From an archaeon (GTDB taxonomy: Archaea; Iainarchaeota; Iainarchaeia; Iainarchaeales; 1-14-0-10-31-34): a stretch of DNA of 64,000 nt. Within the stretch, counting starts at the first letter, position 1; each line of letters begins with the position of its first letter. Shown one piece after another: positions 3,183-35,085 of the stretch. The notes beneath the pieces were generated by a model. The model ran no database searches, was not told the DNA's origin, and saw nothing but the letters and a program-made list of their open reading frames with translations. The stretch spans positions 3,249-67,248 of the forward strand of contig JBDRIL010000029.1 of assembly GCA_043815885.1 (NCBI GenBank), given 5' to 3'. The position numbers and the translations under genes were made by a program.

Positions 3183-4880
3183 ATGAAGATAAAGGCAGTT
3201 ATTTTTGATTTGGATGACACTCTTTTTGACTGCAGTGGAATGCTTGTAGAGAATGCAAGAAAACGCTCAGTAAAGGCAATGGTTAAAGCAGGACTGAATC
3301 TCGGCGAAAAGGAATTAATGCAGGAACAAAAAAAAGTATTGCAGGAAGATCCAAAATGTGATGTATTTGAATTAATTTTAAGGAACGCCAAGTTGAGTGA
3401 AAGAGAAAGAAAGAGGATTAAGAAGGCTGCACTGAAGGCATATAATTCAGATGTAGTTGAAAAAATAAAGCTCTTTCCAGATGTAATGCCTACTTTAAGG
3501 GAATTAAAGAAGAAAAAAATCAAGCTGGTAATAATTACCTCCGGCTTATACAGAAGACAGATGAAGAAAGTCAGGTTATTGAAGCTGAATAAATTAATGG
3601 ATTTAGTTTTAGTGCATGATATAGAGAAAGATCCCTCATTTTATCAGGAGCATTTTCTTGATGCACTAAAAAAATTCAATTTAAAGTCCTCTGAAGTGGC
3701 AGTGACTGGAGACAGGCTTTATGCAGAGATAAAGACTGCCAACAAGCTAGGAATGCATTCAATTCAGTTCATGCATGGAAGATTCAGGAAACTTAAACCA
3801 GAGAATGAATTAGAGAAGGCTGACTATAAAATCAGAAAGATTTCTGAAGTATTAAATATAATCAAAAAAATTGAGTCTCTTCCAACAAAAAAGGAATTTG
3901 AGGAACTGAAAGTAGTGGCAATTGGAGGAGGTACTGGACTGCCAAATGTATTGTTTGGATTAAAGAAATTTACTGCTAACCTTACTGCAATAGTTACTGT
4001 AACTGATTCAGGCAGAAGTTCGGGGAGACTGAGAAGAGAACTGAATGTATTGCCTCCAGGAGACATAAGGAATTGTTTGGTAGCGTTAAGTGATTCAGAA
4101 AAATTAATGAAGGACTTGTTCCAGTACAGGTTTTTTGGAGAGAATGAATTGAATGGCCACAGTTTTGGAAATTTATTTATTGCTGCTTTGGCTAAATTAA
4201 CTGGTTCTTTCGAAAAAGGAATTGAAAAGGCAAGCAATATCCTTGCAATAAAGGGAAGAGTGCTTCCTTCAACACTGGAAGACGTGTATCTTTGCGCTGA
4301 ATTAAAGAACGGAGAAATGATTGAAAGAGAGGAAGTAATCAGAAGCAAAGCCCTTCCAATAAAAAAGGTCTTCCTAAAACCATCAAATGCAAAACCACTG
4401 AATAAAGCAGTGAAAGCAATAATGGACGCAGATGCAATAGTTATTGGGCCGGGTTCATTGTTTACCTCCATTATCCCGAATCTCTTGGTTAATGGAATTC
4501 CTGAAGCAATAAAGAAATCCAAGGCAAAAAAGATTTATGTATCCAATATAGTTACCCAGCCAGACCAAACAAAAAACTTTACAGTCTCTGAACACGTAAA
4601 AACAATAGAAGAATATTTAGGAAAGAGAGTAATTGATTTTGTTATAATTAACAATATGCCCCCTCCAAAAAATTTATTGAAGAAATACAGGGAAGAAGAT
4701 TCAGGTTTAGTGAAGGCCAACAAAAAGGAATTAAAGAAAATCAATGCAAAAATAATTGAAGAAAACCTGATTGAAAAAATAAAGGAAGAAAAAAAACCCC
4801 TTCTATGGGAAAAAAAGTATTTATTAAGGCACGATCCATTCAAACTGGCTGAATGCATTCTGAGAACAGTGAAAGAATAG
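3183..4880 (+). CDS. HAD-superfamily hydrolase fused to YvcK/CofD-like (UPF0052, gluconeogenesis factor / 2-phospho-L-lactate transferase family) domain
   Basis: N-terminus has HAD motif I (VIFDLDDTLF). C-terminal half has VVAIGGGTGLPNVLFGLKKF...VTVTDSGRSSGRLRRELNVLPPGDIRNCLVAL, typical of the YvcK/CofD family. Confidence 0.7.
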   Translation: MKIKAVIFDLDDTLFDCSGMLVENARKRSVKAMVKAGLNLGEKELMQEQKKVLQEDPKCDVFELILRNAKLSERERKRIKKAALKAYNSDVVEKIKLFPDVMPTLRELKKKKIKLVIITSGLYRRQMKKVRLLKLNKLMDLVLVHDIEKDPSFYQEHFLDALKKFNLKSSEVAVTGDRLYAEIKTANKLGMHSIQFMHGRFRKLKPENELEKADYKIRKISEVLNIIKKIESLPTKKEFEELKVVAIGGGTGLPNVLFGLKKFTANLTAIVTVTDSGRSSGRLRRELNVLPPGDIRNCLVALSDSEKLMKDLFQYRFFGENELNGHSFGNLFIAALAKLTGSFEKGIEKASNILAIKGRVLPSTLEDVYLCAELKNGEMIEREEVIRSKALPIKKVFLKPSNAKPLNKAVKAIMDADAIVIGPGSLFTSIIPNLLVNGIPEAIKKSKAKKIYVSNIVTQPDQTKNFTVSEHVKTIEEYLGKRVIDFVIINNMPPPKNLLKKYREEDSGLVKANKKELKKINAKIIEENLIEKIKEEKKPLLWEKKYLLRHDPFKLAECILRTVKE

Positions 4881-4882
4881 AA

Positions 4883-6100
4883 TTATTTTTTTGGCTTCAT
4901 TACGATTAAAGTGTAGTTTTTTTCTTTCAGGAAGTTCTTTGCTGTTTCTTGTACTTGTTTTGAGGTAACGGAATGAATTCTTTTAAGGAAGTCTTTTGTG
5001 TACTTTACCTTGTTTCTCTTGTAATTAATCAGGTTTAAGGCTAAATCAAAATTGTTTTCTTCTGTGAGAAGCAGTTTTCCTTCAATGTATTGTTTTGCTT
5101 TATTCAATTCTTCTTTGGTTAGTTTTTTTTCTCTTAAGGCCTTTATTTCTTTTTCAATTAATTCCTTTACTAAAGGAATCTTTTCTTTTCTTGCCCCAAC
5201 ATACACGGCAAAGTAACCGAAGTAATTTCCTGCCTCTAAATGTGATTGTACTGCATAAGCAAGACCTCTCTTCTCCCTTATCTCCTGCATCAGCCTGCTA
5301 CTTAACCCACCCCCTAAATGAGCATTAATTACTTCCATTATATAGTGTTCTTTTTTAGTGGAAGGAGTGACCTGAAAACCATAAATTAAATGCGCCTGGC
5401 TTAATTCCCTTTTAATTAATTTGTTTCTTTCAGTTATTTTTTCTTTCCTGAATTCCTTTACATCTCTTGGTTTCTTTTTTTTCGTGGAAAATGATTCCTC
5501 AATTTTTTTCTTTACTTTCAATGGATTAATGTTTCCTACAACTGAAACAATTATGTTTGAAGGAGTGTAAAATTCATTAAAGTAATCAATGATGTTCTTT
5601 CTGCTGATTCCTTTCACTGTTTTCTTTGTTCCAATAATGCTCTTCATTTTATTGTCCTTAAAGCAGAGCTGCTGGAATAAATCAAAGAGGTAATTCGGAA
5701 CATTGTCCTTTATCTGGCTTATCTCTCTTAGAACAATCTTTTTCTCTAATTTAAGGTTTTTTTCCTTGAACAGGGAATTATTCAGGCAGTCCTGCAATAC
5801 GTCCAGTCCTTTACCAAAGTGCTTGTCCTGGACTTCAACAAAGAAACAAGTCATTTCATTGGAGGTGAATGCATTAATCTTTCCTCCAATTTTGTCAATC
5901 TCTTCAGCCAGTTCTTTCTTGTTTCTTTTCTTGGTTCCAGTGAAAGCCATGTGTTCAATTAAGTGAGCTATTCCTGAATGTTTTGTTTTCTCAAAAATTG
6001 AACCAAAATTAATTGAAATAAGGATTGCAACAGAATTACTGTCTTTTCTTTCCTTTACAAGCAGATTCAATCCATTACTCAAAACGAATTCTTTGATCAT
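4883..6100 (-). CDS. M16-family zinc metallopeptidase (insulinase-like)
   Basis: Inverted zinc-binding motif HLIEH (GIAHLIEHMAFTGT); two-domain M16 architecture; 405 aa. Confidence 0.8.
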   Translation of the reverse strand: MIKEFVLSNGLNLLVKERKDSNSVAILISINFGSIFEKTKHSGIAHLIEHMAFTGTKKRNKKELAEEIDKIGGKINAFTSNEMTCFFVEVQDKHFGKGLDVLQDCLNNSLFKEKNLKLEKKIVLREISQIKDNVPNYLFDLFQQLCFKDNKMKSIIGTKKTVKGISRKNIIDYFNEFYTPSNIIVSVVGNINPLKVKKKIEESFSTKKKKPRDVKEFRKEKITERNKLIKRELSQAHLIYGFQVTPSTKKEHYIMEVINAHLGGGLSSRLMQEIREKRGLAYAVQSHLEAGNYFGYFAVYVGARKEKIPLVKELIEKEIKALREKKLTKEELNKAKQYIEGKLLLTEENNFDLALNLINYKRNKVKYTKDFLKRIHSVTSKQVQETAKNFLKEKNYTLIVMKPKK

Positions 6101-6106
6101 AGAAAT

Positions 6107-9100
6107 TCACTGCACTACCTTGCCTGTAATTGCATCAATTCTCGCTTTTCTTTCCTTTCCATTTTCTTCCAGTGAAACGTAATAGAACGGCCTGTAAACC
6201 AGACTCACTTTTTTCACTATCACTGTCTTCCACATTTTCTGGAGAGACTTAATTACTTTTTCTTCAGAGAAATTAGCTTCGACTATTGAGACATTCTTTA
6301 ATTCAACCAAAGGCAATTCATTCAATGAATCAATCAATGAATGCCTTGAGTCAGGAGGAAGTTCTATCTCTCTGTTAAGGAAATAGGAGACCTTTCCCTC
6401 AGAACTAACTCTATCAACCAAACCCTTTTCAGTTAAATTGCCTAGAACTTTTTTTATTCTTGTTTCAGAGTAATTCTCTTCCTCCAGTTTTTCCTCCATT
6501 CCTTTCCTTTTAATTAAGCCAGCAAATACCTCTAACTGCTCTTCATCCAATTCCATTACCTTATTGAAGCCTCTTGATTCAATGAATTCATCATTCTTTA
6601 CGTGAATGAATTCCCCTGTAATGGCATTAATGAAACACGTAGTTGCAATGAATTCCTTGCTTTTGTTGAAGTCATTGAATGAAATCTTATAGACTGGCTC
6701 AAAAATAAGTTGAAGTTGCTTTACCTGCTCTTCCTTTCCAACCAACCCAAACCTTTTCCTTTTCCTTACCTTATTAACGATTTTCTTTGCTTCCTCTTCC
6801 TTTAATCTTAATGGAAATGAAAGAATGCTTTCCCTCTCTACCTTCTTTTCTTCCTGCTCTTTTATTCTTTCCTCTGCTTTTTCCTGTGCTTCCTTTATTA
6901 CTTCCTCTTTTTCCTTTAATTTTTCTGCAAGAACGACTCTGTCTGGTTCAATTACTGCCTTTCTTTCCTCCAATAAATCCAGTACAGAGGAAAGCATTGC
7001 CTTTGCCTTGTACTTGCTGTTCAATGAATTAATCAATTGATTGATTTTATCCATTCCTATTTCTCCATCCCTTCCTAATTCCCTGAACGCAATTTCCATT
7101 GCAAGGTTTTCCACCTGTTCCTTGCTCAGGCTTTTAACCAAAGAAATGGTTTCTGCATCCCTTCCCTCGTGCTGCGACATTCTTGGGCGGATACTCATCA
7201 CAAACGCTCTGCTTGTTTCCTCTCTCCTGTCACCAGTGAGAGCATAACCTATTGGAAGGCTTCTAATGAAATTGCTTTTCTTGTATTGGTGGGGAATGAT
7301 TGTAGGAATTCTCTTGTAAATAGCCTTTATGTCGTCATCAAAAACCAGTTTATGAGTCAAAAGAATATCCAATTGAGACAACACCCTTGTATCAATTGCT
7401 GATGGCTGCTGTGTAGCAAAAACTATACTGCAACCAGGCCTTCTTCCCTGCTTAACATACTCCACCAACGCATTTGTGGCAGGAGTATTTACATTTCCTG
7501 AAGGAATTAAGGTGTGGGCTTCATCAATAAACATCCAGGTAGGAGGAATATCTGTTTCAAGCAATGCATTCATTGAAGTAGCCTTCATTTTATTCGCTGA
7601 TTCTCTTCTAGTGGAAAGCTTTCTCGCTGAAAGAATTCTCCTTGCAAGAATTCCAATAACCAATGCAGTAACATTTGCTTCAAGAAAACTTGTATCCAAT
7701 ACAGTCAACTGGTTTTCTCTGGAGAGTTCCCCCAAAGGAGTTCCCTTTTCATCAAAGATCCCCCAGGACTTCGCTGCCTCAAACCTGCTGACTAACGCCC
7801 TAATGGAATCCTGTTTGTAGCCTCTTTCCCTGCTATTCAATTCTTCATCTGTCTCCAGACAGTTTATCATGCCATCCAGAGAAAAACCCTGCTTGTTTGC
7901 CTTAACGTATTTTCCTTCAATTGTCTTGTATCCATGCTCTACTTTTTTAATTACCTTATCCAAAAGCAAGCCGCTTGGACCAAATCTCTCCATTCCAAAA
8001 GTCAAACACCAGTCCTCTGAGGTAAGCAGTGAAGGCTGAATTGAAAAGGTTGCATCATAAGTGTTTTTTGGAGTTTCATTCTTCATTCCTGCTGGAATGA
8101 ATACCTTAAGGTTATCAAGGCCTTGAGGTTCTAACCCCCACTCAATCAATGCACTTAATTCCTTTTCTTCCTTGTTTGCATACTTCATGCTCCAGAACAC
8201 TCCAATAGGATCAATTACTACTATTCCAACATTGCTGTTTTTCAGTGCCAGTTCCTCTGCAATCACTCCAAGAACGTATGAATTATGAACAATTATATCG
8301 TTTGCAACAAAATTATAGTATTCTGGAACAGAAATATCATATACATCTTCTCCAGGAATTTCTTTTAACTCAGTTACCTCATCCCAAAAAATATCTGATT
8401 CTGCTATCATCTGTACTCCTTTATTCCCTTCAATCTGAGCCATTCTCAGTAACTTTTTTCTGGAAGGCGCGTAAGTTAAGGAACTATGGACGTAGTTTGG
8501 ATTATAACCCATTGCTCTCGAAGCAGCCTTACAATTTTTTGGTCTATAAATGCCCCAGATTTCTTTCGGAATAGTGTCTACATTTGGATTTCTTGAAACC
8601 TCAAGCATGTCTTTTATTGCATTTTCCTGTTTTAGTTCTTTTACCCCAAAAAAACCGATTTCCTGAATGAATCTGATTACACTTTCAGATGAAATAACTA
8701 ATTCAAAGGAATTGAATTTTTTCTCGTTACATTTGACTTTTTTGAACCTAAGCCTAGAGAGTATCCCAAATCTAATCAAAAGATTCTGCACTTGCCTTAT
8801 CATTTTATCTGAAGAACTAGAATAAGAAACCTGCCAATTATTTTTTCTTCTACTTATCGGATGAATACTGCCGTCACAACTGAAAAGCCTGTTCAGGAAT
8901 AATGCCAGCTGTTCTTTAGGAAGTTTTAATACTTCTTCTGGAATAACTTTCTCCTTTGTTAGCTTTCCATATAATCCAATGCTTTCAAACCATTTTGCCA
9001 GAGAACTCTTTTGCGCGACAATAAACCCTTTGCTTGTAAATTGCCCTTTTTTGTTTCTAACAACATTTGTTAAATCAATTGGTTTCTTTTTTTGTGCAAC

Positions 9101-10288
9101 TCTATAGCATCCGATTTTACTATGCACTTCTATTCTTAGGTTTTCATCAAATTCCTTTATGCTTTGGGAGAAATCTTCAAGAATTTTTTTGTCTTCGTTA
9201 CTGAATAAAACAAATGCATTTCTTAGATGCCCTTCCGCAATAAAGTAAGCCAATAACTTAATATCACACTCTCTCATCCTAGTGTTGCCAAATACATTAA
9301 GTGCCCTTGGCACTGCTATCCTGTCTTTTGCTTTTAGTTCTTGGGTTTGCATCCATCCATTAATTGTTAGGAGAGGATGTTCGGGAGTCAATTTTATTTC
9401 CCTTCCACTCCTTAACCGCAAATAAAGCAATTTGCTCACTTTTCTCTTATAAAATCCTTCTTTTTTCAATGGAACTACTTTTAGTTCATGGTTTAATCCA
9501 AGAACCCGTTTATCATTGTTTTCTAGTTCCTTTATAGGAATAACCGAGCCATCTTCCAAGGTTATCAATGAATCGCCAGTAAGGCATTTTCCACTCCCAC
9601 GAGCACCGCAAACAAACACTACATGAGGATTCAGTCCGTCAAGAAAAACCTTTTTTTTATTGTATCCCTCTTCCTCCAGCCTTCCAATCAATAATGCTGC
9701 ATCAGATCCATAATTAAGGAAAACTGATTTCTTTCTTCCAATGAATACAGATTCATTTTTCTCGTCCTCCAGAAATTGCAGAGGCATTGAATTTGCTGGA
9801 ACTTCTTCCACAAATTTTTCTTCTGGTTCAGGAGCGCCTTCCATTTCACTTATTGTTTCCCCGCGCTCTTCCTTTTCCTCTTCAACTTCTTCCTCTATTT
9901 CCTTTGTTGCAGACTTCAAAGCCTTTCTCAGAATGAGTTTCTTTAATTCATTTTTTGGAGGCAATTCCTTCTTCAATTCCTCCTCTGGTTCTTCAATGTT
10001 TTCCTCTTCTGCTTCCTCGTTTTCTTCCAATTCAATTTCCTTTTCAATTGACTTGTTTTCTTTTTTTTCCTTTGCGCCAATGCTTTTCTCAAAAGCTTCA
10101 GCTTTTGCGCCACTGCTTTTTTCAAAAGCGGTGTTTTCTTTTTCTGGCTTTATTGTCTTAATGATTTCCTCTACATGTTTTTCCTTTTTCCCGTCAAATA
10201 CCTCGTCAAATATATCCACGTCCTCCTTTACCCTGGATTTCTGTACTCTCTCTTCTGGAGAGAGTTCCCTTGGTTTTTCTTCATTCAT
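6107..10288 (-). CDS. HerA/FtsK-superfamily (DUF87-like) P-loop ATPase with an acidic low-complexity N-terminus and an intein inside Walker A
   Basis: Extein Walker A is GARGSGK|S (reconstituted across the intein). Walker B is MFIDEAH. HerA-like motif TQQPSAIDTRVLSQLDILLTHKL. The N-terminal ~220 aa are an E/K-rich linker. Confidence 0.75.
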   Translation of the reverse strand: MNEEKPRELSPEERVQKSRVKEDVDIFDEVFDGKKEKHVEEIIKTIKPEKENTAFEKSSGAKAEAFEKSIGAKEKKENKSIEKEIELEENEEAEEENIEEPEEELKKELPPKNELKKLILRKALKSATKEIEEEVEEEKEERGETISEMEGAPEPEEKFVEEVPANSMPLQFLEDEKNESVFIGRKKSVFLNYGSDAALLIGRLEEEGYNKKKVFLDGLNPHVVFVCGARGSGKCLTGDSLITLEDGSVIPIKELENNDKRVLGLNHELKVVPLKKEGFYKRKVSKLLYLRLRSGREIKLTPEHPLLTINGWMQTQELKAKDRIAVPRALNVFGNTRMRECDIKLLAYFIAEGHLRNAFVLFSNEDKKILEDFSQSIKEFDENLRIEVHSKIGCYRVAQKKKPIDLTNVVRNKKGQFTSKGFIVAQKSSLAKWFESIGLYGKLTKEKVIPEEVLKLPKEQLALFLNRLFSCDGSIHPISRRKNNWQVSYSSSSDKMIRQVQNLLIRFGILSRLRFKKVKCNEKKFNSFELVISSESVIRFIQEIGFFGVKELKQENAIKDMLEVSRNPNVDTIPKEIWGIYRPKNCKAASRAMGYNPNYVHSSLTYAPSRKKLLRMAQIEGNKGVQMIAESDIFWDEVTELKEIPGEDVYDISVPEYYNFVANDIIVHNSYVLGVIAEELALKNSNVGIVVIDPIGVFWSMKYANKEEKELSALIEWGLEPQGLDNLKVFIPAGMKNETPKNTYDATFSIQPSLLTSEDWCLTFGMERFGPSGLLLDKVIKKVEHGYKTIEGKYVKANKQGFSLDGMINCLETDEELNSRERGYKQDSIRALVSRFEAAKSWGIFDEKGTPLGELSRENQLTVLDTSFLEANVTALVIGILARRILSARKLSTRRESANKMKATSMNALLETDIPPTWMFIDEAHTLIPSGNVNTPATNALVEYVKQGRRPGCSIVFATQQPSAIDTRVLSQLDILLTHKLVFDDDIKAIYKRIPTIIPHQYKKSNFIRSLPIGYALTGDRREETSRAFVMSIRPRMSQHEGRDAETISLVKSLSKEQVENLAMEIAFRELGRDGEIGMDKINQLINSLNSKYKAKAMLSSVLDLLEERKAVIEPDRVVLAEKLKEKEEVIKEAQEKAEERIKEQEEKKVERESILSFPLRLKEEEAKKIVNKVRKRKRFGLVGKEEQVKQLQLIFEPVYKISFNDFNKSKEFIATTCFINAITGEFIHVKNDEFIESRGFNKVMELDEEQLEVFAGLIKRKGMEEKLEEENYSETRIKKVLGNLTEKGLVDRVSSEGKVSYFLNREIELPPDSRHSLIDSLNELPLVELKNVSIVEANFSEEKVIKSLQKMWKTVIVKKVSLVYRPFYYVSLEENGKERKARIDAITGKVVQ
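8282..9586 (-). mobile_element. intein (435 aa) with LAGLIDADG homing-endonuclease domain, inserted in the P-loop of the HerA-like ATPase
   Basis: Begins CLTGDSLITLEDG right after GARGSGK. LAGLIDADG blocks LLAYFIAEGH and LALFLNRLFSCDGS. Ends NDIIVHN, followed by Ser+1. Coordinates were derived by codon counting. Confidence 0.85.
10103..10138. repeat. 36-nt imperfect-hairpin repeat (TTTTGCGCCACTGCTTTTTTCAAAAGCGGTGTYTTC), in-frame within the HerA-like gene; a degenerate tandem copy lies at ~10071-10102
   Basis: Near-identical copies lie in the P0 gene at 27369-27404 and 27534-27570. On the coding (minus) strand it encodes TAFEKSSGAK. Confidence 0.8.
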
Positions 10289-10815: not shown

Positions 10816-10862
10816 ACTGCGTTTTAAATTTAATTCTACTAAAATTATATTAATGGTTTTAT

Positions 10863-10936
10863 GGGCCGGTAGCACAACCTGGTAATGCGCTCGGTTCGCA
10901 TCCGAGAGAATTCGGGTTCAAATCCCGACCGGTCCA
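10863..10936 (+). tRNA. tRNA-Ala (anticodon CGC)
   Basis: Hand-folded cloverleaf: acceptor GGGCCGG/CCGGTCC with a G3:U70 pair (the Ala identity element); anticodon loop TTCGCAT; T-loop TTCAAAT; discriminator A. No intron. Confidence 0.85.
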
Positions 10937-10949
10937 TTTGGTGAAAAAA

Positions 10950-11780
10950 ATGAAATTAATTTATAATTCAGTTTTCCTTGAACACAATAGGGAAGGGCAT
11001 CCGGAGAATAGGGAGAGACTGCAGTATTTTTTTAATGAAAGGGAAACTGAAATTGGATCAGGGGAAAGATTTCTTGAATTAGTGCATTCAAGGGAATACA
11101 TTGAAAGAGTGAAGGACGCTTCTTCCAGGGAAGAATTTTTGGACGCGGATACTTATACATGCAGAAAGAGTTTTGAAGTTGCTTGTTTTGCTGTGGGAGC
11201 AGCAATAAAGGCTGCAGAGGAAAAAGCATTTGCTCTTGTAAGACCGCCAGGACATCATGCGAAAAGGAATTCAGCTGAGGGGTTTTGTTTGTTCAATAAC
11301 ATGGCAATTGCAGCAAAGCATCTCGCGGAAAAAGGAAAGAAAGTGCTTATAATTGATTTTGATCTGCATCACGGGAATGGAACGGAAGAATTAGTGAAAG
11401 GAGAGAAAAGGATTTTTTATTTTTCCACGCATCAGGCAGGAATTTATCCAGGAACAGGTTTCGGGGTGGAAGGAAATGTATTGAATGTATCTCTTCCGTA
11501 TAAAACTACTGATGCACAATACATTCAAATATTAAATGAAGAACTTATACATAACCTGGAATCTTTTTCTCCCGACATAATCGGATTGAGTGCTGGATTT
11601 GACTGTTATTACAAGGATTTAGATGCATTAGGAAAGGGAATGGGTTTTGAGCTCTCTACTAAAAGCTTTAAAAGAGTAAGGGAAATAATTAATGAATATG
11701 ATTCCTTTGCCTTGCTTGAAGGAGGATATAGGGCAGAAAGCATTCGTGATGGAGTTAATGTATTTATTGGAGAGGAGTGA
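10950..11780 (+). CDS. histone deacetylase / acetoin-utilisation (arginase-deacetylase superfamily) protein
   Basis: VRPPGHHA and IIDFDLHHGNGTEE motifs. An alternative TTG start at 10938 abuts the tRNA-Ala. Confidence 0.75.
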   Translation: MKLIYNSVFLEHNREGHPENRERLQYFFNERETEIGSGERFLELVHSREYIERVKDASSREEFLDADTYTCRKSFEVACFAVGAAIKAAEEKAFALVRPPGHHAKRNSAEGFCLFNNMAIAAKHLAEKGKKVLIIDFDLHHGNGTEELVKGEKRIFYFSTHQAGIYPGTGFGVEGNVLNVSLPYKTTDAQYIQILNEELIHNLESFSPDIIGLSAGFDCYYKDLDALGKGMGFELSTKSFKRVREIINEYDSFALLEGGYRAESIRDGVNVFIGEE

Positions 11781-12433: not shown

Positions 12434-14083
12434 TTAGGCTTCTTCTGCAGCTTCTTCCACTGCATCCAGACAATCTTCTTTATAATTTTCATTCCTGATT
12501 TTATAACATGCGTCATCAATTAATGTCTCTACTGCAAAATTATAGTGACAGTAATCAGGGGTATTGTAAGGATAATCAAGAAAAACCCTCTCCCCTAAAT
12601 CGCATACAAGGTAATCCACAAGCTTTATTGCCAGTTCACTGAAGCATTGAATGTATGCTTCTGCTCCAAGCAAATCCCCGCAAAGAGAAGGATCTGAGAG
12701 ATTATAGGCAACGCCAACATAACAGTCAACCTTTGCTTCTGTTTCCCTTATCTTTAAGCAGACACTTGATTCATTGGTGTCTGCGGCTATTTTCACATAA
12801 CAGGCATCCCTCTTATTCACGTCAGCCGTAACTTTTTTGCAGTACTCCCAACTCAGTTCTGCTTCAGCTAAATCAAAGTAACAGTCATCAATCTTTTGCG
12901 GGTTAATTATGAGTTCACATATTTCTTTGCTTGGAGCTTCTTCGCCAAGCATTTCAAAGCATTCCTGCCGTACATTCTTGTCGCTTATTTCTTCGCATAC
13001 ATTAACTTCGAGTAAATTCTTGTCAACATCAAACAAACAATAATTCAATGCATTCAGGTCAGTTATATTCTTGCATATCTCTGTTTCAATTAAATTAACG
13101 GCTATCTGACGGAAGCAGTTGTTTGTCTGGGTTTTATCCATATAAAAAGAACAGATTGATTCTGTTTTAGTGGATGAAAGCAAATCATTCAGGCAATGGT
13201 CTTTCTTGAAGCCATTGGAATCCCTGGAGGTTGAAAGATAATCACATATCTCATAATTTTCCAGGCTTATTGCTACTTCCCAATAACATTGGTCCTTCTT
13301 TAAAGGGCTTGAAATCTGGCTGCACTCCATTACACTCTTCTGCGCTCCGGCAACTGCCTTAAAGCATAAATCCTTTTCACTTGAATCAATTAAATTCCTA
13401 CATATGTCTGCATTGCTTAAATCAAGGGCAATGGTCTTAAAGCATTCATCCCTCATATTTTGATTCCTTAAAGGAGAAACAAGTTTACAGTACTCTGATT
13501 CATTGGTTAGAATTGCAATCTCATTATAGCATTTATCTTTAGATAATTCCTTTATTAAACCGCACACAAATGCATCCTCGTTTTCTATTGCATACTCACC
13601 CAAACACAAATCCTTTCTAACCTGTGAGCCCTCTCCATCACACAGCCCGGCATAAGGAGTCATGTCCTGGTCGATTAAAACATTTCCGTCAACTGAATAC
13701 AATACAATAGCGCTTGCCTCAAGAGAATACTTACTCTCCCTCAAATCCTTTCCAACAGAAGTGACAACATAGTAATAAGTCAAACCCTCAATCAACCCTA
13801 AATCAATGAATTCCTTTTCAGTTAAAGGAGCAGAGGTAAGCTTAAGATAGTCTTTCCCGCTTAAAAGACTCCTGTAGACATTATAACCAATAACGTGTTC
13901 CTCGTTTTCCTTCATCCAGGAAAGCTTTATGGATTTAATCCCTGACTTAGCGACAACACTTGTAGGGGAGGCAATAGGCTGGGGAGTTCCATCTTCTCCA
14001 TCTACTCCATCCTCTTCAATACATCCACTAACCAGGATTAATCCTGTCAGGAAAATCAATAAAATTAAGGTCTTTAGATTCAT
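12434..14083 (-). CDS. secreted / lipid-anchored surface protein with an Fn3-like domain and ~10 tandem Cys-containing repeats
   Basis: N-terminal signal with lipobox-like LVSGC. An Fn3-like region (IKLSWMKENEEHVIGYNVYR). Repeating ~35-aa units, each with two Cys (KDxCYxxIA...C). Confidence 0.6.
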   Translation of the reverse strand: MNLKTLILLIFLTGLILVSGCIEEDGVDGEDGTPQPIASPTSVVAKSGIKSIKLSWMKENEEHVIGYNVYRSLLSGKDYLKLTSAPLTEKEFIDLGLIEGLTYYYVVTSVGKDLRESKYSLEASAIVLYSVDGNVLIDQDMTPYAGLCDGEGSQVRKDLCLGEYAIENEDAFVCGLIKELSKDKCYNEIAILTNESEYCKLVSPLRNQNMRDECFKTIALDLSNADICRNLIDSSEKDLCFKAVAGAQKSVMECSQISSPLKKDQCYWEVAISLENYEICDYLSTSRDSNGFKKDHCLNDLLSSTKTESICSFYMDKTQTNNCFRQIAVNLIETEICKNITDLNALNYCLFDVDKNLLEVNVCEEISDKNVRQECFEMLGEEAPSKEICELIINPQKIDDCYFDLAEAELSWEYCKKVTADVNKRDACYVKIAADTNESSVCLKIRETEAKVDCYVGVAYNLSDPSLCGDLLGAEAYIQCFSELAIKLVDYLVCDLGERVFLDYPYNTPDYCHYNFAVETLIDDACYKIRNENYKEDCLDAVEEAAEEA

Positions 14084-21524: not shown

Positions 21525-24311
21525 ATGATTAAGATTTCAAAGCTGAGGTTAAAGAATTTCAAGTCATTTACTAAAGCAACAATCCCTTTTTCAAGGGGCT
21601 TTACAGCTATTGCCGGAAGCAATGGGTCAGGGAAATCCAATATCCTTGACGCATTAATGTTTGTATTGGGGATTACCTCCCTCAAAATGCTTCGGGCATC
21701 AAAACTCACTGATTTAGTCAATCATTACAGCAAGGACAGCTATGCATTAGTGGAAATGGATTTAGCTGGAGAAGACAAGAATTACGTTATCTCCAGGGAA
21801 GTGGACAGAGAGGGAAAGAGCGTATTCAGGATGGAGGGAAAGAGAAGCAGTCTGGGAGAAATCACTTCACTCTTGAAGGAATTAGGAATTAAGGCAGACG
21901 GATACAATATCGTGGTCCAGGGAGACGTTACAAGAATCATTGAAATGAATGCCGTTCAGAGAAGGGAAATCATTGATGAATTAGCTGGAATAAGGGAATT
22001 CGATGAAAAAAAAGAGGAAGCAATAAAGGAATTAGACAAAGTGGACAGAAAGATAAGAGAGGTAATGATTGTATTAAAGGAAAGAGAAACCTACCTGAAT
22101 GAATTGCAGAGGGAAAGGGAAGCAGCATTAGAGTACCAGAACCTGAGCGGAGAGTTAAAGAAAACCAAAGCAACAATCGTGGAAAAAGAAATCGGGAAAA
22201 TAAAAAAAGAAATAAATGAATTCAACCAAAAAAAAGAGAAACTGAATGCTGAAAGGAATTCCATTGAAAAAAAATTATCCGAAATGAAATCAAGGGAAGA
22301 GGAAACCAGGAAAAAAGTAGAGGAACTGAATGAAAAGATTCTTTCAGCAAACCAGAAAACCTATGCAGGAATAGGGATTGATTTAGAGGAAGTTAAATCA
22401 GACAAGAGACTGGCAGAAGAGAAGATTAATTCAAAGAAAGAGCACATCAACGTAATGAGCAACAGGATAAATTCACTGAATGAAAAGAAAGAAGTAATCA
22501 GGGAAAAAGAAAAAGAATCAAAGAAGAGACTGCAGGAATTAAGGGAAGAAAAAAAGGAAGCAGAGAAATCACTTGAAGAAACAGAGAAGTCCGCCGGAAT
22601 AAAAGCAAATTTCACTGAATTAAGGGCATCCCTAAACAGGGCAGAAAAGGGGCTGGATGAATGCCTGAATGAATTAAATGAAGGAAAGGAATCCTTCTAC
22701 CAGAGGAAATCTGAAATAGGCTCCTTGGCAAAAGAAATCGGGAATGCAGAAAAAATCCTGGAAGAATTAAAGGAAAACAAGGCAGCAAAGGAATTAAAGG
22801 AAAAAAGCGAAAAAATAAAGAAAGCAATAAAGAAAATGAATGAAGTCGAAGAAGAAATAAAAAAACTGAATAAAAAAATCAATTCAAAGGAACTGAATGA
22901 AAGAATCAAGGAATTAAGGCAGGCAAGGGAAAGAATACTGAAAGAAATGAGCGAAGTAATTGATCTGGCAAGAGAGGCCGGAGGAATGAGAAAAGAGGAA
23001 ACAGTGGAGGCAGAGAAAAAGAAAAGCCAAAAGGAATTAAAGAAATCAGAAGAAGCAAGGGAAGCATTGAACAATACGATTAAGAAACTAGAGAAAGAAA
23101 AAGGGAAACTGGAAGAAGAAACAAAGAAATTAAGGAATGTATTGATGGAGGAAAACGAGGCAATAGAGGGACTGAATGAATTAAGGAACAAATTAAAGGA
23201 AATTTCCTTGAATGAGGATTCAATTGAGAATTCATTGAAAGATAAAAAGAATTCAGTAAGTGAAATAGAGAAAGAAATAGAGGAATCAATGAAGGAAGTT
23301 GATTCACTGGAAGAAGGAATAAAGAAGGAAGAAAAAAGAACTGAGGAATTAAACAAAAGAATAAGGGAACTGAATATTGAACTGGAAAAACAAAGCCAGG
23401 AAAGCAAGCATTTTTATGAAGACAAGGAAAGAGAACAAAAGAGCCTTGAATCAATAAATGAAAGAATAACAATATATGAAGAAAAAATAGGTAAACTGGG
23501 AAAGGAAGAAAATGTGCTGGAAATAGAGAACTCAAAGAACGAAGTAAGGATAACTGACTTGGAAGAAGAGAAAAAGGAGTTTGAAGGAATTGAATTATTG
23601 GAAGGAGTTGAATTAGCTGAATTAAAGCAATCCCTTCCTGAAATAGAGAAAAACATAACCAAGCTTGGAGCAATAAACATGAAGGCAATTGATTCCTTTA
23701 ATGTGTTTGCCGAAGAATTACTTGAAATAAAGAATAAGGCAGAGAAATTAGAGCAGGAAAGGATTGCAGTGCTTGAAATGATTGACAAGATTGAAGTAAA
23801 AAGAATCAATGTCTTTAATGAATGCTTTAATCAAATAAATTCAAACTTCAATAAAATGTATTTCTCCCTGGCTGAAGGAGAGGGAAAGCTGAAGTTAAGT
23901 GATGAAAATAATCCATTGGATTCAGGATTGCTTATTGAAGCAAGGCATGTAGCAGAAAAAGTGAAGGGAATTGATTCCATGAGCGGGGGAGAAAAAAGTT
24001 TAACTGCATTAGCCTTTTTGTTTGCAATCCAGCTCTACCAGCCTGCCCCGTTTTATTTCTTTGATGAATCCGATGCAGCACTGGATAAACCGAATTCAAT
24101 AAAGATGGCCAGAATGATTAAAGAAATATGCAGGAAAAACCAGTTTATCGCCATTACTCACAATGACACACTCATAAAGGAATCCGACCAAATAATTGGT
24201 GTAGCCTTAAACGAACAAAAAAGCTCGGTAATAGGATTAAAGCTAAAGGAAGAAATAGAAAAAGAATTAAAAGAAACAAAAACAGAAGAAATAAAGGAAA
24301 CAATAAATTAA
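21525..24311 (+). CDS. SMC-family ABC-type ATPase with long coiled-coil, apparently lacking a hinge domain
   Basis: N-terminal Walker A (AGSNGSGKSNILDALMFVLG). SMC-typical VVQGDVTRIIEMNAVQRREIIDELAGI. C-terminal signature MSGGEKSLTALAFLFAI and Walker B FYFFDESDAALD. 928 aa. The middle is continuous K/E heptad coiled-coil with no Gly-rich hinge and no CxxC zinc hook. Confidence 0.75.
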   Translation: MIKISKLRLKNFKSFTKATIPFSRGFTAIAGSNGSGKSNILDALMFVLGITSLKMLRASKLTDLVNHYSKDSYALVEMDLAGEDKNYVISREVDREGKSVFRMEGKRSSLGEITSLLKELGIKADGYNIVVQGDVTRIIEMNAVQRREIIDELAGIREFDEKKEEAIKELDKVDRKIREVMIVLKERETYLNELQREREAALEYQNLSGELKKTKATIVEKEIGKIKKEINEFNQKKEKLNAERNSIEKKLSEMKSREEETRKKVEELNEKILSANQKTYAGIGIDLEEVKSDKRLAEEKINSKKEHINVMSNRINSLNEKKEVIREKEKESKKRLQELREEKKEAEKSLEETEKSAGIKANFTELRASLNRAEKGLDECLNELNEGKESFYQRKSEIGSLAKEIGNAEKILEELKENKAAKELKEKSEKIKKAIKKMNEVEEEIKKLNKKINSKELNERIKELRQARERILKEMSEVIDLAREAGGMRKEETVEAEKKKSQKELKKSEEAREALNNTIKKLEKEKGKLEEETKKLRNVLMEENEAIEGLNELRNKLKEISLNEDSIENSLKDKKNSVSEIEKEIEESMKEVDSLEEGIKKEEKRTEELNKRIRELNIELEKQSQESKHFYEDKEREQKSLESINERITIYEEKIGKLGKEENVLEIENSKNEVRITDLEEEKKEFEGIELLEGVELAELKQSLPEIEKNITKLGAINMKAIDSFNVFAEELLEIKNKAEKLEQERIAVLEMIDKIEVKRINVFNECFNQINSNFNKMYFSLAEGEGKLKLSDENNPLDSGLLIEARHVAEKVKGIDSMSGGEKSLTALAFLFAIQLYQPAPFYFFDESDAALDKPNSIKMARMIKEICRKNQFIAITHNDTLIKESDQIIGVALNEQKSSVIGLKLKEEIEKELKETKTEEIKETIN

Positions 24312-31203: not shown

Positions 31204-34200
31204 ATGAAGTGTCCTTATTGCGGGAGTGAAGAAAGCAAGGTTGTGGATAAGAGGGAAACAGATGATTTGGTTAGCAATAGAAGGAGGAGAGAGTGCCTTA
31301 AGTGCAGTAAAAGGTTCACTACATATGAAAGAATTGAAAGGATTGAATTGAATGTAGTGAAAAAGGATGGAAGAAGGGAAGCATTCAATAGGGAGAAACT
31401 GATTACTGGGATAACTAAAGCATGCGAGAAAAGGCCTGTTGGAAGGGAAAAAATTGAAGCAATAGTGAATGAAATTGAATCAGAACTGCTTCAAAGAAAG
31501 GAGACAGAAATTCCTTCAAGAGAGATTGGAGAACTGGTAATGCAGAGACTGAAGAAACTGGATGAGGTTGCATTCATTAGGTTTGCTTCAGTGTACAAGA
31601 CTTTTACTGATGTAGCTGAATTTGAGAGAGAGCTGAAAAATTTAAAGGTTGTAGAGGAAAAGTCCTCAGGAGATTCTACAGATATATTGCTGCAAGTGGC
31701 TACTCATGCAGCTGGATCCACAATTGGGTGGAGAAGGAGCAGGATAACTGAAGCATTAATGAAGGAAGCTGATTTAAGCAAGGACAATGCAGAAGAAATC
31801 GCCCAGTCAGTTGAAAAAAAGGTTTTTGCTTCAGGAATAAAGACTATTTCTGTTTCACTGATAAGGGAATTAGTGGATAATGAATTGTTTGTTAGGGGAT
31901 ATGAGAAGAAGCTGGAGAAACAGGGATTAATTGGAATGCCTTCCTATAATTTGAATCAATTAATCTATAACATGAGTCTGGAGAACAGCAATGTTCGTTC
32001 AAACAGCCCTGAAGCAATTAATTTAGCGATTGCAGAGAATGCATTAAAGCAGTATGCTTTAAGAGAGATATTTTCGAAAGAAGTATCCAATGCTCACTTA
32101 AAGGGAGCACTGCATTTGCATGACTTGGGTTATCCTATCCGCGTGTATTGTTCAGCGCATTCGCTTGAATTCATTAAAAAATATGGTTTAAGGCTGATCA
32201 ATCTTTCAACTGCATCTACCCCGGCAAAACACGCCCATACTTTAACTGGGCACTTGAATACATTTCTTGCCTCAATGCAGGCATACTATGCTGGAGCATT
32301 AGGAATAAGTTTTGTGAACGTATTCTATGCCCCTTACTTTGTCGGAGCCGACTACAAGGAAATGAGACAGCAAGCACAATACCTTATTTTTTCGTGTTCA
32401 CAGAATGCATTCTCTAGAGGCGGACAATCACTTGTTCCTGAGGAAACAATCTGGGTAAAGGAAGGAGAGAAATTAAAGCAAGCAGGGATAGGGGAATTGG
32501 TTGATGAATTTATTGAATTGGATGAGAGAAAGGAAGAATTAATTGACGGGACAGAGATAAGCAGGAACAACTTCAAGGGAATTGAAGCAATTTCCTTTGA
32601 CGAGGAAGGAAAGATTAGCTGCAAGAAGATAAGTGCTTTTGCAAGGATTCCATTCAAGGGAAAAATCTATTCAATTACCACGAATAAAGGAGAAGTGAAG
32701 GGAGTTACTGGAAGCCATTCAGTGTTTGTATGGAATGGAAGGAAATTTGAAGCAAAAAAGGCAGAAGAGTTGAGGAGAAATGATTACATTGTAACTGCTT
32801 TAAAGGCAAAAGGATTAGTGGGAGAAAGGAATGAACTGGATTTAATTGAATTTTATTTGAACAGGAAGGAAGCAGAAAACGAGGTAAGGGTCTATGATAC
32901 AGAGGAAAGATTCAAGAAGGCATTAATGGAGAGATACGGAAGAAGTTTCTATAAGGAATTTGAAAAAGATACTGGAGTTAAAGCTGAATGCGTTAGGAGC
33001 AATTGGTTGAGATACAAAAAAATTCCGTTAAAGTATTACTTTGAGTTTGTTGGAAACCCCGAAGAAGAAAAACTGATTTACAAGGGAGACAGCCAGACAG
33101 TGTTTCCAGCAAGAAGCAAGGTAACTAAAAGTCTAGTGAAATTGCTTGGATATTATGTGAGTGAAGGACACAATAGTCTGAGAAGCAGAAGCTTTATTGC
33201 AGTAAGCAATAAGGAAGAAAAATTCATTGAGAGCGTGAAGGAATGCCTGAATGAATTGAGTTATCATTACATAGTGAATGAAAATAAAAGGAATGGAGTG
33301 AAAACAGTTGTAATTCAAGGCATTCTTGCAAAAATCATTAGTGATTTAGGGGAAGAGGAAAATGGAGTGAAGAAGATTCCATTCATTATTTATAATGCAT
33401 CAAAGGAATTGCAGAAAGAATTCCTGAATGCATTCCATGAAGGAGATGGATTAAAGAGAAGGAACAGTTATGCAATAGCAAATACCTCTGAAAATGTAGT
33501 GAATGGAATCTCGCTTCTTATGGCAATGAATGAAAAAGACTTCCATTTATTCAAGAGAACTTATGCGAATGAAAAATGGAAGCCTTGCTATGAATTAAGG
33601 GAATCATTAATGGATAACAGGGTAATAGACCACAAAATAAGCAGGGAATTAATTGGAAGAAAAGGGTTTAGAAAGGAATTAAAGAATTTGAGTGCTGACA
33701 TTGAAAGCAAAGGAGGAACAAAAACTCAACAAATTCAGTTGCTTCAAATGTTAATGGAAGCAGAGGTTGGGTTTGCAAGAATAAAGGAAATCAATACCTG
33801 TGATTATGAGGGATTTGTTTATGATGTAAGTGTTCCGGGAAATGAATCATTTTTAGGAGGCACTGGATTAATCTTCTTCCATAACACTCTATTTATCGAT
33901 TTTAATATTCATTTAGGGATTCCTGAATTTTTGAAAAAGGTTCCGGCAATCGGTCCAGGAGGAAAGTATACTGGAAAGACTTATGAAGAGTATGAAAAGG
34001 AAGCTCAATTGTTTGCTAAGGCTTTAATGGATGTATGGAGAGAAGGAGACGGAGATGGAAAGCCTTTTCCTTTCCCTAAACTGGATCTGCACGTTAATCA
34101 GGAAAGCTTTGACGATCCAAGACAGTTTGAGTTATTGAAGTATGCTTGCTTGATTTCTTCAGAGAATGGAGCTCCTTACTTTGCATTTGACAGGGATGCA

Positions 34201-35085
34201 GTGAATTTATCCATGTGCTGCAGGTTAAGGACAAAGTTAACTGATACTTATGTTTTAGAGCATCCTGAAAGCATTAGGTATTGTGGTTTTCAGAATGTTA
34301 CAATTAATTTGCCTCAGGCTGCTTACAGGGGAGGAAAAGGAAATATAGAGAAGTGCATTGAGGAAGTAAGGAATACAATGGATTTGGCAATGAAGGCTCA
34401 TTTAGAGAAAAAGGAATTCATTTCCACTTTAATGAAGGAAAACGGTCCTTTATGGCAGGTGGGAAAAGTCTCTCCTGATGGAATTCCTTACCTGGACTTA
34501 GATAAAGCTACTTATATTATTGGATTGATTGGATTGAATGAATGCGTTAAGCACTTAATTGGAAAGGAACTGCATGAATCAGATGAAGCATTCAAGCTGG
34601 GATTAAAGATAATTTCTGCAATGAATTTAAAGACAAAGGAACTGGAAAAAGAGACAGGGCTTAGAGTTGCATTAGAGGAAAGTCCGGCTGAATCAGCTTC
34701 ATTGAGGCTGGCGAGAGTTGATTTAAAGGAGTTTCCTGAAAGCAAGGAATATGTGAGAGGAAACAAAGAAACAAGGGAAGTGTATTACACTAATTCAATC
34801 CATCTCACTCCTGATGCTCCAGTGAGCATTAGTGAGAGAATTGAAAAGCAGGGAAAGTTTAATCCATTAATTGAGTCAGGAGCAATAACCCATGTATTCT
34901 TAGGAGAACAAAGGCCAGAACCAGAGGCAATACTTAATTTAGTGAAAAAGACATGGGAGAACACTCAAAGCGACCAAATAGTTATCTCTCCTGAATTCAC
35001 TGTGTGTGATGACTGCAACAGAGTAAGCCCTGGCTATAAAAGAAAGAATTTAGGAGGTAATCGAAATGAAAGAAAAAGAAGTTGA
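31204..35085 (+). CDS. nrdD: NrdR-like repressor (Zn-ribbon + ATP-cone) fused to class III anaerobic ribonucleoside-triphosphate reductase NrdD, interrupted by an intein
   Basis: Residues 1-~148 look like full-length NrdR (MKCPYCGS...[46 protein letters not shown]), continuous with the NrdD body. The main frame ends [11 protein letters not shown]... with no glycyl-radical motif. Confidence 0.8.
32428..33885 (+). mobile_element. intein (486 aa) with LAGLIDADG homing endonuclease, in NrdD after ...FSRGGQ
   Basis: Block A is [13 protein letters not shown] (Ser1). Block B is [17 protein letters not shown] blocks [10 protein letters not shown] and [10 protein letters not shown]. Blocks F/G are [24 protein letters not shown], followed by Thr+1. 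Confidence 0.85.

Follow-up and report, generated by a model that had tools for sequence, protein, structure and literature searches.

This work describes a 64,000-nucleotide (nt) stretch of an archaeal contig (JBDRIL010000029.1, assembly GCA_043815885.1, Iainarchaeales), hereafter called the window. One minus-strand open reading frame (ORF) in it very probably encodes the precursor of a HerA-superfamily ring ATPase, interrupted in its P-loop by a class-1 LAGLIDADG intein that splices and homes. An earlier note, made from the DNA letters alone, had proposed this intein and a HerA-like host with unusual terminal extensions. Here, we confirm the position and the class of the intein, trace intein-less and intein-bearing relatives of the gene, and delineate the domains of the host protein, for which a tentative function is discussed.

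A predicted class-1 intein in the Walker A motif

The ORF encodes 1393 amino acids (aa) and its reading frame continues uninterrupted through the intein. A protein from a public collection, P0248, is identical to it over the whole of its own 864 aa. Excision of the 435 intein residues leaves an extein of 958 aa, in line with the approximately 960 aa given in the earlier note. The intein itself (CLTGDS...IIVHN, ORF aa 235-669) was recovered exactly at positions 8282 to 9586, with the correction that it is encoded on the minus strand. Its junctions read VVFVCGARGSGK/CLTGDS and ANDIIVHN/SYVLGV, and because they fall there, the Walker A motif GARGSGK/S is split between Lys and Ser, as had been claimed.

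Both ends of the intein are covered by the Pfam model Intein_splicing PF14890 (E 3.4e-26, 92.3 bits, cutoff 35.8), and its middle is matched in two stretches by LAGLIDADG_3 PF14528 (E 2.4e-22, 79.4 bits, cutoff 22.5). The NCBIfam models intein_Nterm TIGR01445 (58.7 bits, cutoff 24.5) and intein_Cterm TIGR01443 (27.8 bits, cutoff 15.6) are also exceeded, and the best NCBIfam match is the intein within the DnaB model PRK07773 (1e-79). Such scores lie far beyond chance, and the predicted intein blocks were recovered both by the models and by motif inspection. All splicing residues are present, namely Cys1, the block-B Thr and His, the terminal His-Asn and the +1 Ser, and both LAGLIDADG motifs keep their acidic residues. 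The GC content of the intein is 34.6%, compared to 39-41% for the extein. Judged by its motifs, the region encodes an intact class-1 intein (HINT fold) with a LAGLIDADG homing endonuclease. It adds one more intein to an established class, at a kind of site already on record, and is real but unsurprising.

As long as the Walker A motif is split, the precursor would be unable to bind or hydrolyze ATP. Splicing would proceed through an N-S acyl shift at Cys1, transesterification to Ser+1, cyclization of the terminal Asn and an O-N shift. This would ligate Lys234 to Ser235 and yield the 958-aa active ATPase and the free endonuclease. The latter would spread the element by homing, cleaving alleles without an intein within their strongly conserved P-loop codons, while the invariant P-loop would protect the intein from imprecise loss.

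Empty and occupied alleles of the insertion site

A protein search with the extein identified P0001, a protein of 958 aa with 90% identity to the extein and an intact GARGSGKSYV loop. Its contig (L001) aligns with the window on both flanks of the intein, over positions 10811-9586 and 8284-4881 (84-86% DNA identity), and the window therefore carries a clean insertion of 1305 nt. The neighbors of the empty allele are those of the window: the gene is preceded by one for a small membrane protein and followed, after 6 nt, by an M16 peptidase gene, with a HAD-CofD gene further on. Within the 72 nt around the insertion site, the two loci differ at 9 positions (8 synonymous differences plus a two-base Leu/Ile codon difference).

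A relative of the host protein is encoded in 241 species-representative genomes, the best 80 of which were screened for inteins. Only one of these 80 (L088) carries an intein, at the same site and with 62% identity to that of the window; the other 79 are intein-less. Among metagenomic family members, full-size inteins occupy the same site in P0241 and P0247 (60-61% identity) and in P0260 (57%), and P0109 carries a mini-intein of 162 aa without endonuclease. Two proteins from Diapherotrites, P0253 (1374 aa) and P0261 (1373 aa), have a different, larger intein of 584-619 aa at the identical GK/S site, with the ends CLLPTE.../CLKPDE...SHN/CHN; at least two intein lineages have therefore invaded this site.

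Related inteins were also detected outside the host family. Many occur at the GK/S site of a shorter (about 500 aa) HerA-like paralogue from DPANN archaea (GKRGSGK/C...HN/SYTMG), with 46-54% identity to the window intein, and some of these have been reduced to mini-inteins of 200-214 aa. P0217 and P0235 are among the proteins with a mini-intein at the GK/S site. The P-loop inteins of bacterial DnaB are more distant (32-37%; MGK/C...HN/T in P0192 and P0196), so that the nearest relatives of the window intein lie within the host family (60-62%) and then in the short paralogue, not in DnaB. The coexistence of empty, full-size, mini- and unrelated inteins, the sporadic distribution and the lower GC content fit the invasion, degeneration and loss cycle of a mobile homing element. 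The intein lineage also appears to move now and then from one ATPase to another with the same P-loop sequence.

The P-loop is on record as a hot spot for inteins, with insertions in DnaB, MCM, RFC and "many other ATPases" (PMC4760082); the main text of that paper mentions neither HerA nor COG0433. Like the inteins at DnaB site b (DnaBi1), MCM site a and RFC-S site a, the window intein is a class-1 LAGLIDADG intein within Walker A. As in DnaB, the cut separates the Lys from the adjoining Ser/Thr, which serves as +1 nucleophile. It differs from all three in its host, a HerA-superfamily ATPase, and our literature search returned no account of the host family, nor one of a P-loop intein in a HerA-like protein.

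The host is a variant of the HerA superfamily

The HerA-like nature of the host is supported at both the sequence and the fold level. The extein is matched by DUF87/PF01935 (50.9 bits, cutoff 23.2) and HerA_C (23.6 bits, cutoff 22). Its sequence matches in the PDB are weak (best 8xau, 2e-6), and all are HerA proteins except for a marginal kinesin (E 0.32). An AlphaFold model was built on P0001, the intein-less orthologue, using a 46-member alignment. The mean predicted local distance difference test (pLDDT) score was 77, and about 90 in the core. Foldseek matched the core best to the HerA structures of T. kodakarensis (9x1m, 5e-19) and S. solfataricus (4d2i, 1e-17), followed by bacterial defense HerAs, with 13-18% identity to the matched structures.

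The host is nevertheless not part of a standard HerA-NurA module, as the earlier note had already stated. The NCBIfam HerA equivalogs NF040937 and NF042943 reach 28.2 and 28.8 bits against a cutoff of 800, no HAS-barrel model was found among the Pfam matches at E≤0.1, and no genes for NurA, Mre11 or Rad50 were found among the neighbors in the window or in the loci of six relatives. The model, read without domain-level structural superposition, shows only four short strands in the approximately 55 residues before the P-loop, with disorder ahead of them. The Pfam model FtsK_SpoIIIE PF01580 reaches 20.9 bits on the extein, below its cutoff of 24, and this match is confined to the P-loop region. 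By sequence, the host is thus a HerA-superfamily variant that falls outside canonical HerA (in HAS barrel, equivalog score and NurA linkage) and outside the FtsK motor model.

Across the 46 aligned members, Walker A, Walker B and numerous Arg residues do not vary; the unchanged Walker A positions include G228, R230, G231, G233, K234 and S235. The extein residue C227, located 8 residues upstream of the intein Cys1, is nearly invariant. The ATQQPS motif is conserved in all 46 members; HerA and FtsK have (S/T)QRPS at this motif, so that its Arg is replaced by Gln.

Both extensions of the core are present, with dimensions somewhat different from those first proposed (Table 1). Of the approximately 220-aa Glu/Lys-rich N-terminus, about 165 aa are acidic and disordered (30% Glu, net charge -23), and the following 55 aa or so form a folded beta subdomain. 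No hydrophobic segment is visible in the disordered part by inspection, made without a transmembrane predictor. It does contain a short motif, DIFDEVF (aa 25-31, positions 10196..10216, minus strand), with the family consensus D-[ILF]-F-[DS]-E-[VMI]-[FL] and a Phe (F27) kept in at least 90% of the 46 members. The motif may be a partner-docking peptide.

The C-terminal extension spans approximately 345 aa rather than 300. In the model of P0001, it consists of a winged helix, an alpha/beta module, a winged helix-turn-helix and a second alpha/beta module. Comparison of the two alpha/beta modules by hhalign shows that they are homologous (probability 95%, E 2.6e-8). With Pfam PepSY PF03413, the window protein reaches 23.4 bits, just under the cutoff of 24 (E 7.6e-5), and 13 of 18 family members show PepSY matches (best 1e-7). 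The best PepSY stretch of the window protein falls in module 2, and module 1 is labeled PepSY-like because of its homology to module 2. TrmB matches were found in 14 of the 18 members, and the winged helices match TrmB, Lrs14, ArsR and MarR types; FtsK gamma is not among the matches listed. The PDB fold matches to the C-terminal region are mostly winged helices, with no PepSY structure among them, and Foldseek with the C-terminal model gave nothing significant. A profile search with the C-terminal alignment returned a single match, its candidate step probably being swamped by Glu/Lys-rich low-complexity words. The terminal-domain architecture of the host matches no studied HerA, FtsK or defense ATPase and is undescribed in the literature searched.

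Table 1. Features of the intein-containing ATPase gene and its predicted product
Feature	Window position	Strand	Extent and remarks
Precursor ORF	6107..10288	minus	1393 aa; N-extein, intein and C-extein; stop codon included
N-terminal disordered acidic region	9794..10288	minus	aa 1-165; pLDDT <50 over most; one helix at about aa 112-135
End of N-extein	9587..9793	minus	small beta-rich subdomain, then beta strand and N-terminal part of Walker A (GARGSGK, 9587..9607)
Small beta subdomain			extein aa ~170-222; AlphaFold model of P0001
Intein	8282..9586	minus	435 aa; PF14890, PF14528, TIGR01445, TIGR01443 and PRK07773 matches; missing from syntenic allele L001
Intein block A, CLTGDS	9548..9586	minus	Cys1 nucleophile
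Intein block B, LTPEHPLL	9368..9391	minus	LTPEH is intein aa 66-70; TxxH
LAGLIDADG motif 1, LLAYFIAEGH	9227..9256	minus	intein aa 111-120
LAGLIDADG motif 2, LFLNRLFSCDGS	8867..8902	minus	intein aa 229-240
Intein blocks F/G, VYDISV...NFVANDIIVHN	8282..8344	minus	
+1 Ser codon	8279..8281	minus	predicted splice nucleophile and Walker A Ser (GK-S) at once
Rest of HerA-like ATPase core	7154..8281	minus	extein aa 235-610; DUF87, HerA_C and AAA matches; alignment with HerA 8xau; pLDDT ~90; Foldseek
Walker B, WMFIDEAH	7514..7537	minus	
ATQQPS motif	7400..7417	minus	extein aa 523-528
RPRMSQHEGR motif	7148..7189	minus	invariant
First winged-helix-like domain	6929..7123	minus	extein aa 621-685
Acidic Glu/Lys-rich linker, helical/disordered	6827..6928	minus	extein aa 686-719; pLDDT <50 at 691-717
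PepSY-like alpha/beta module 1	6569..6826	minus	extein aa 720-805; one helix and four-strand sheet
Second winged helix-turn-helix, TrmB/Lrs14-like	6374..6568	minus	extein aa 806-870
PepSY-like alpha/beta module 2	6110..6328	minus	extein aa 886-958 (C-terminus); best PepSY stretch

Family breadth and genomic context

The protein search with the extein yielded 1343 matches, the best 120 of which span almost the full query and conserve the long N- and C-terminal extensions nearly throughout. Almost all of the best 80 species-representative genomes belong to the Iainarchaeota, a DPANN lineage, under the labels Candidatus Iainarchaeum or Diapherotrites, among them Ca. Iainarchaeum andersonii and the complete genome CP010424.1 (archaeon GW2011_AR10). 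Beyond these, the alignment to a Hadarchaeales protein (P0264, 810 aa) covers both the core and the C-terminal array, short core-only forms occur in Asgard archaea, and the core is fused to DUF835 in Thermoplasmatota. In P0289 (1257 aa, on a 124-kb contig of a JGI metagenome), an S8 subtilase is fused N-terminally to the same ATPase core and winged-helix C-terminal region. The names of the family proteins in public databases are generic ('ATP-binding protein', 'DUF87 domain-containing protein', 'intein/homing endonuclease').

Gene context was examined in seven loci, the window and those of six relatives. The host gene is monocistronic or paired in a lineage-specific way, within a housekeeping synteny. 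Its surroundings include HAD-CofD, GlmS, GlmM/GlmU-like or GNAT genes in convergent orientation, an S_layer_C protein and, within about 6-12 kb, an SMC gene; ribosomal protein genes also occur. The window neighbors are the M16 peptidase, HAD-CofD, GlmS, a membrane protein and a tRNA. None of NurA, Mre11, Rad50, Sir2, DUF4297 or secretion genes is adjacent in the seven contexts, in agreement with the missing NurA partner of the earlier note. The Rfam and tRNA scans gave only the tRNA-Ala beside the gene and nothing else of relevance. The short DPANN paralogue likewise has no conserved partner in its context.

Several neighbors were considered as functional partners and rejected. The M16 peptidase gene does adjoin the ATPase gene, at a gap of 6 nt (6101..6106) instead of the 7 nt first reported. 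Its adjacency is limited to the close lineage of the window (window, L001/L002): it was found in none of the 80 species representatives within 2-kb flanks and is absent from five other contexts. The divergent membrane protein upstream is conserved in close relatives only. HAD-CofD, GlmS and GlmM do recur (HAD-CofD in 14 of 80), but they are transcribed convergently and are therefore read as lineage synteny rather than as operon partners. The SMC_N protein at 21525..24311 was also rejected as a Rad50 with an Mre11 neighbor, as it scores as an SMC (557 bits) and its upstream ORF encodes a membrane protein.

Two of these neighbors have features of their own. In the window, the HAD-CofD gene (3183..4880, plus strand) encodes a 565-aa fusion of a HAD phosphatase with CofD (2-phospho-L-lactate transferase-like) and lies convergently beside the ATPase gene in several Iainarchaeota. 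It abuts the M16 peptidase gene tail to tail, 2 nt apart; at the corresponding place (window 4881/4882), L001 has an extra stretch of about 365 bp (4627..4991) with a 107-aa gene. The SMC homologue (plus strand) is short, with 928 aa. SMC_prok_A matches it in three stretches, the best of which covers model positions 2-318, and the alignment to SMC_prok_B picks up again at position 690 of that model, so that the hinge and the middle coiled coil may be missing. The versions near the same ATPase gene in relatives have 988 and 1002 aa.

Host function and alternative readings

The host shares with archaeal HerA (4d2i, 9x1m), known from HerA-NurA-Mre11-Rad50 end resection, the core fold, DUF87 and HerA_C, and Walker A and B; its GRRPG...TQQPS region aligns with GRKYG...SQRPS of HerA. 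It departs from HerA in identity, equivalog score and HAS barrel and in having no nurA, mre11 or rad50 gene nearby, as detailed above, and in its added acidic disorder and winged-helix/PepSY-like domains. FtsK/SpoIIIE belongs to the same superfamily and resembles the host in its overall layout of low-complexity linker, RecA-like pump and a C-terminal winged helix that could read DNA. The host differs from it by the subthreshold FtsK_SpoIIIE match, the lack of a visible membrane anchor and winged helices of other types, and a functional analogy between the two is speculative. The HerA-fold core is also common to the anti-phage HerA proteins (Sir2-HerA, DUF4297-HerA, TdpAB) and to E. coli YjgR/DUF853, which are matched at levels near archaeal HerA; in contrast to these, the host has no effector partner gene, lies in housekeeping synteny and carries other terminal domains. 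The short DPANN paralogue (P0217, P0121; K06915/COG0433) shares the ATPase core, the GK/S intein site and related inteins with the host, and its gene likewise stands alone in housekeeping contexts. The paralogue has neither the acidic N-terminus nor any of the C-terminal array; its Walker A motif is GKRGSGKS, and it ends just after RPRFTWHGG.

From fold, domain content and housekeeping context, we tentatively propose that the host is a hexameric translocase or remodeler of double-stranded DNA in chromosome maintenance, rather than in defense or conjugation, a function that is possible but falls short of being probable. The winged helices would hold or recognize DNA, like the gamma domain of FtsK, and partner recruitment would fall to the PepSY-like modules together with the N-terminal motif. 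Several points weigh against this proposal and the explanation as a whole. Splicing, homing and ATPase activity are predictions from the sequence, and DNA as a substrate is suggested by the HerA fold and the winged helices only. None of the neighbors examined qualified as a conserved operon partner that could tie the host to a pathway. Because ATQQPS replaces TQRPS, details of the motor may differ from HerA and FtsK. Finally, the PepSY-like modules, the S8-subtilase fusion of P0289 and the M16 peptidase next to the gene give a weak hint of a role directed at proteins instead.

Such a role would make the host a protease-linked unfoldase or translocase, similar to EccC of the type VII secretion system or to VirB4/VirD4, with PepSY-like modules that bind or inhibit a peptidase. 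The two modules, the M16 gene on the same strand 6 nt downstream (window and L001/L002) and the architecture of P0289 all fit this idea. However, none of the 80 species representatives and none of five other contexts shows the M16 adjacency, the S8 fusion is confined to one cluster, the PepSY score lies just below its cutoff, and two winged-helix domains together with HerA as closest fold point to nucleic acid, so that we consider a protein substrate unlikely. We deem it less likely still that the host belongs to a mobile element or anti-phage system (Sir2-HerA, DUF4297-HerA, mad8-type) or to a conjugative, VirB4-like machinery, with the intein reflecting life on mobile elements. PADLOC mad8 (3e-18) and several HerA models (8e-18 to 3e-7) do match the ATPase core and the fold matches include solved structures of anti-phage HerA proteins, but the PADLOC matches are at the domain level only. 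No Sir2, DUF4297, nuclease or type IV secretion partner is adjacent in the seven contexts, the synteny with GlmS, GlmM, HAD-CofD, SMC and ribosomal proteins is conserved, and 241 species-representative genomes contain a relative.

Two further readings concern the intein itself. It could be a conditional post-translational switch (e.g. redox- or stress-sensitive) that leaves the ATPase inactive before splicing, an idea put forward for the mycobacterial DnaB P-loop intein and the Pyrococcus RadA intein; conditional splicing is reportedly described for a DnaB intein and for a RadA intein. Its homology (32-37%) to bacterial DnaB P-loop inteins at an analogous site and the nearly invariant C227 upstream of Cys1 are consistent with such a switch. 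Against it, the intein occurs in about 1 of 80 species representatives and is absent from the 90%-identical orthologue; the host clearly functions without it. In addition, the intact homing endonuclease motifs fit a mobile selfish element, and the mini-inteins at the site indicate the usual cycle of gain, degeneration and loss. A switch therefore seems improbable. A splicing-dead intein in an inactivated relic gene is scarcely credible, with an uninterrupted frame of 1393 codons in which Cys1, TxxH, HN and Ser+1 are all kept, an extein 90% identical to the intein-less orthologue and every inspected invariant family residue retained.

The proposed translocase can be drawn further into an FtsK-like chromosome pump of the Iainarchaeota, a HerA-fold hexamer in segregation or resolution whose P-loop intein possibly doubles as a conditional on-switch, in the manner of the DnaB P-loop intein. 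In such a pump, the HAS barrel and the NurA partnership would have given way to winged helices that read sequence or structure, PepSY-like modules for protein interaction and an acidic tail bearing a docking motif. A segregation or resolution role fits because of the conserved position of the host gene near SMC, yet we regard this extension as doubtful.

Other features of the window

A second intein is located in a class III ribonucleotide reductase, NrdD (31204..35085, plus strand, 1293 aa), which comprises an NrdR-type Zn ribbon, two ATP-cones and the NRDD domain. This intein (approximately 32428..33885) contains a LAGLIDADG domain and was placed by eye at aa 409-894 (RGGQ/SLVPEE...FFHN/TLF), with Ser1 as nucleophile. 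It is only faintly similar to the intein of the HerA-like ATPase. Upstream of the ATPase gene, tRNA-Ala(CGC) (10862..10937, plus strand) abuts an ORF of the histone deacetylase family (10938..11780, plus strand), which was called from a TTG at 10938; its true start is probably further downstream. At 12434..14083 (minus strand), a Cys-rich protein of 549 aa with an N-terminal hydrophobic segment, repeated C-x-x-[IL] motifs and no Pfam match is encoded.

Biological significance

Neither the intein nor the host protein overturns current understanding, and the host protein is the less understood of the two. For intein biology, the locus adds one more host family and a natural series at one P-loop site, which runs from an allele without insert through an endonuclease-bearing full intein and mini-inteins to a larger intein of unrelated type. 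The related inteins in a paralogous ATPase and in bacterial DnaB support the Walker A GK/S or GK/T sequence as a landing site that is transferable across unrelated ATPases. For archaeal biology, the analysis flags an uncharacterized motor of the HerA superfamily, highly conserved and present in 241 species-representative genomes that belong mostly to the Iainarchaeota, a lineage with small genomes and limited DNA-maintenance repertoires.

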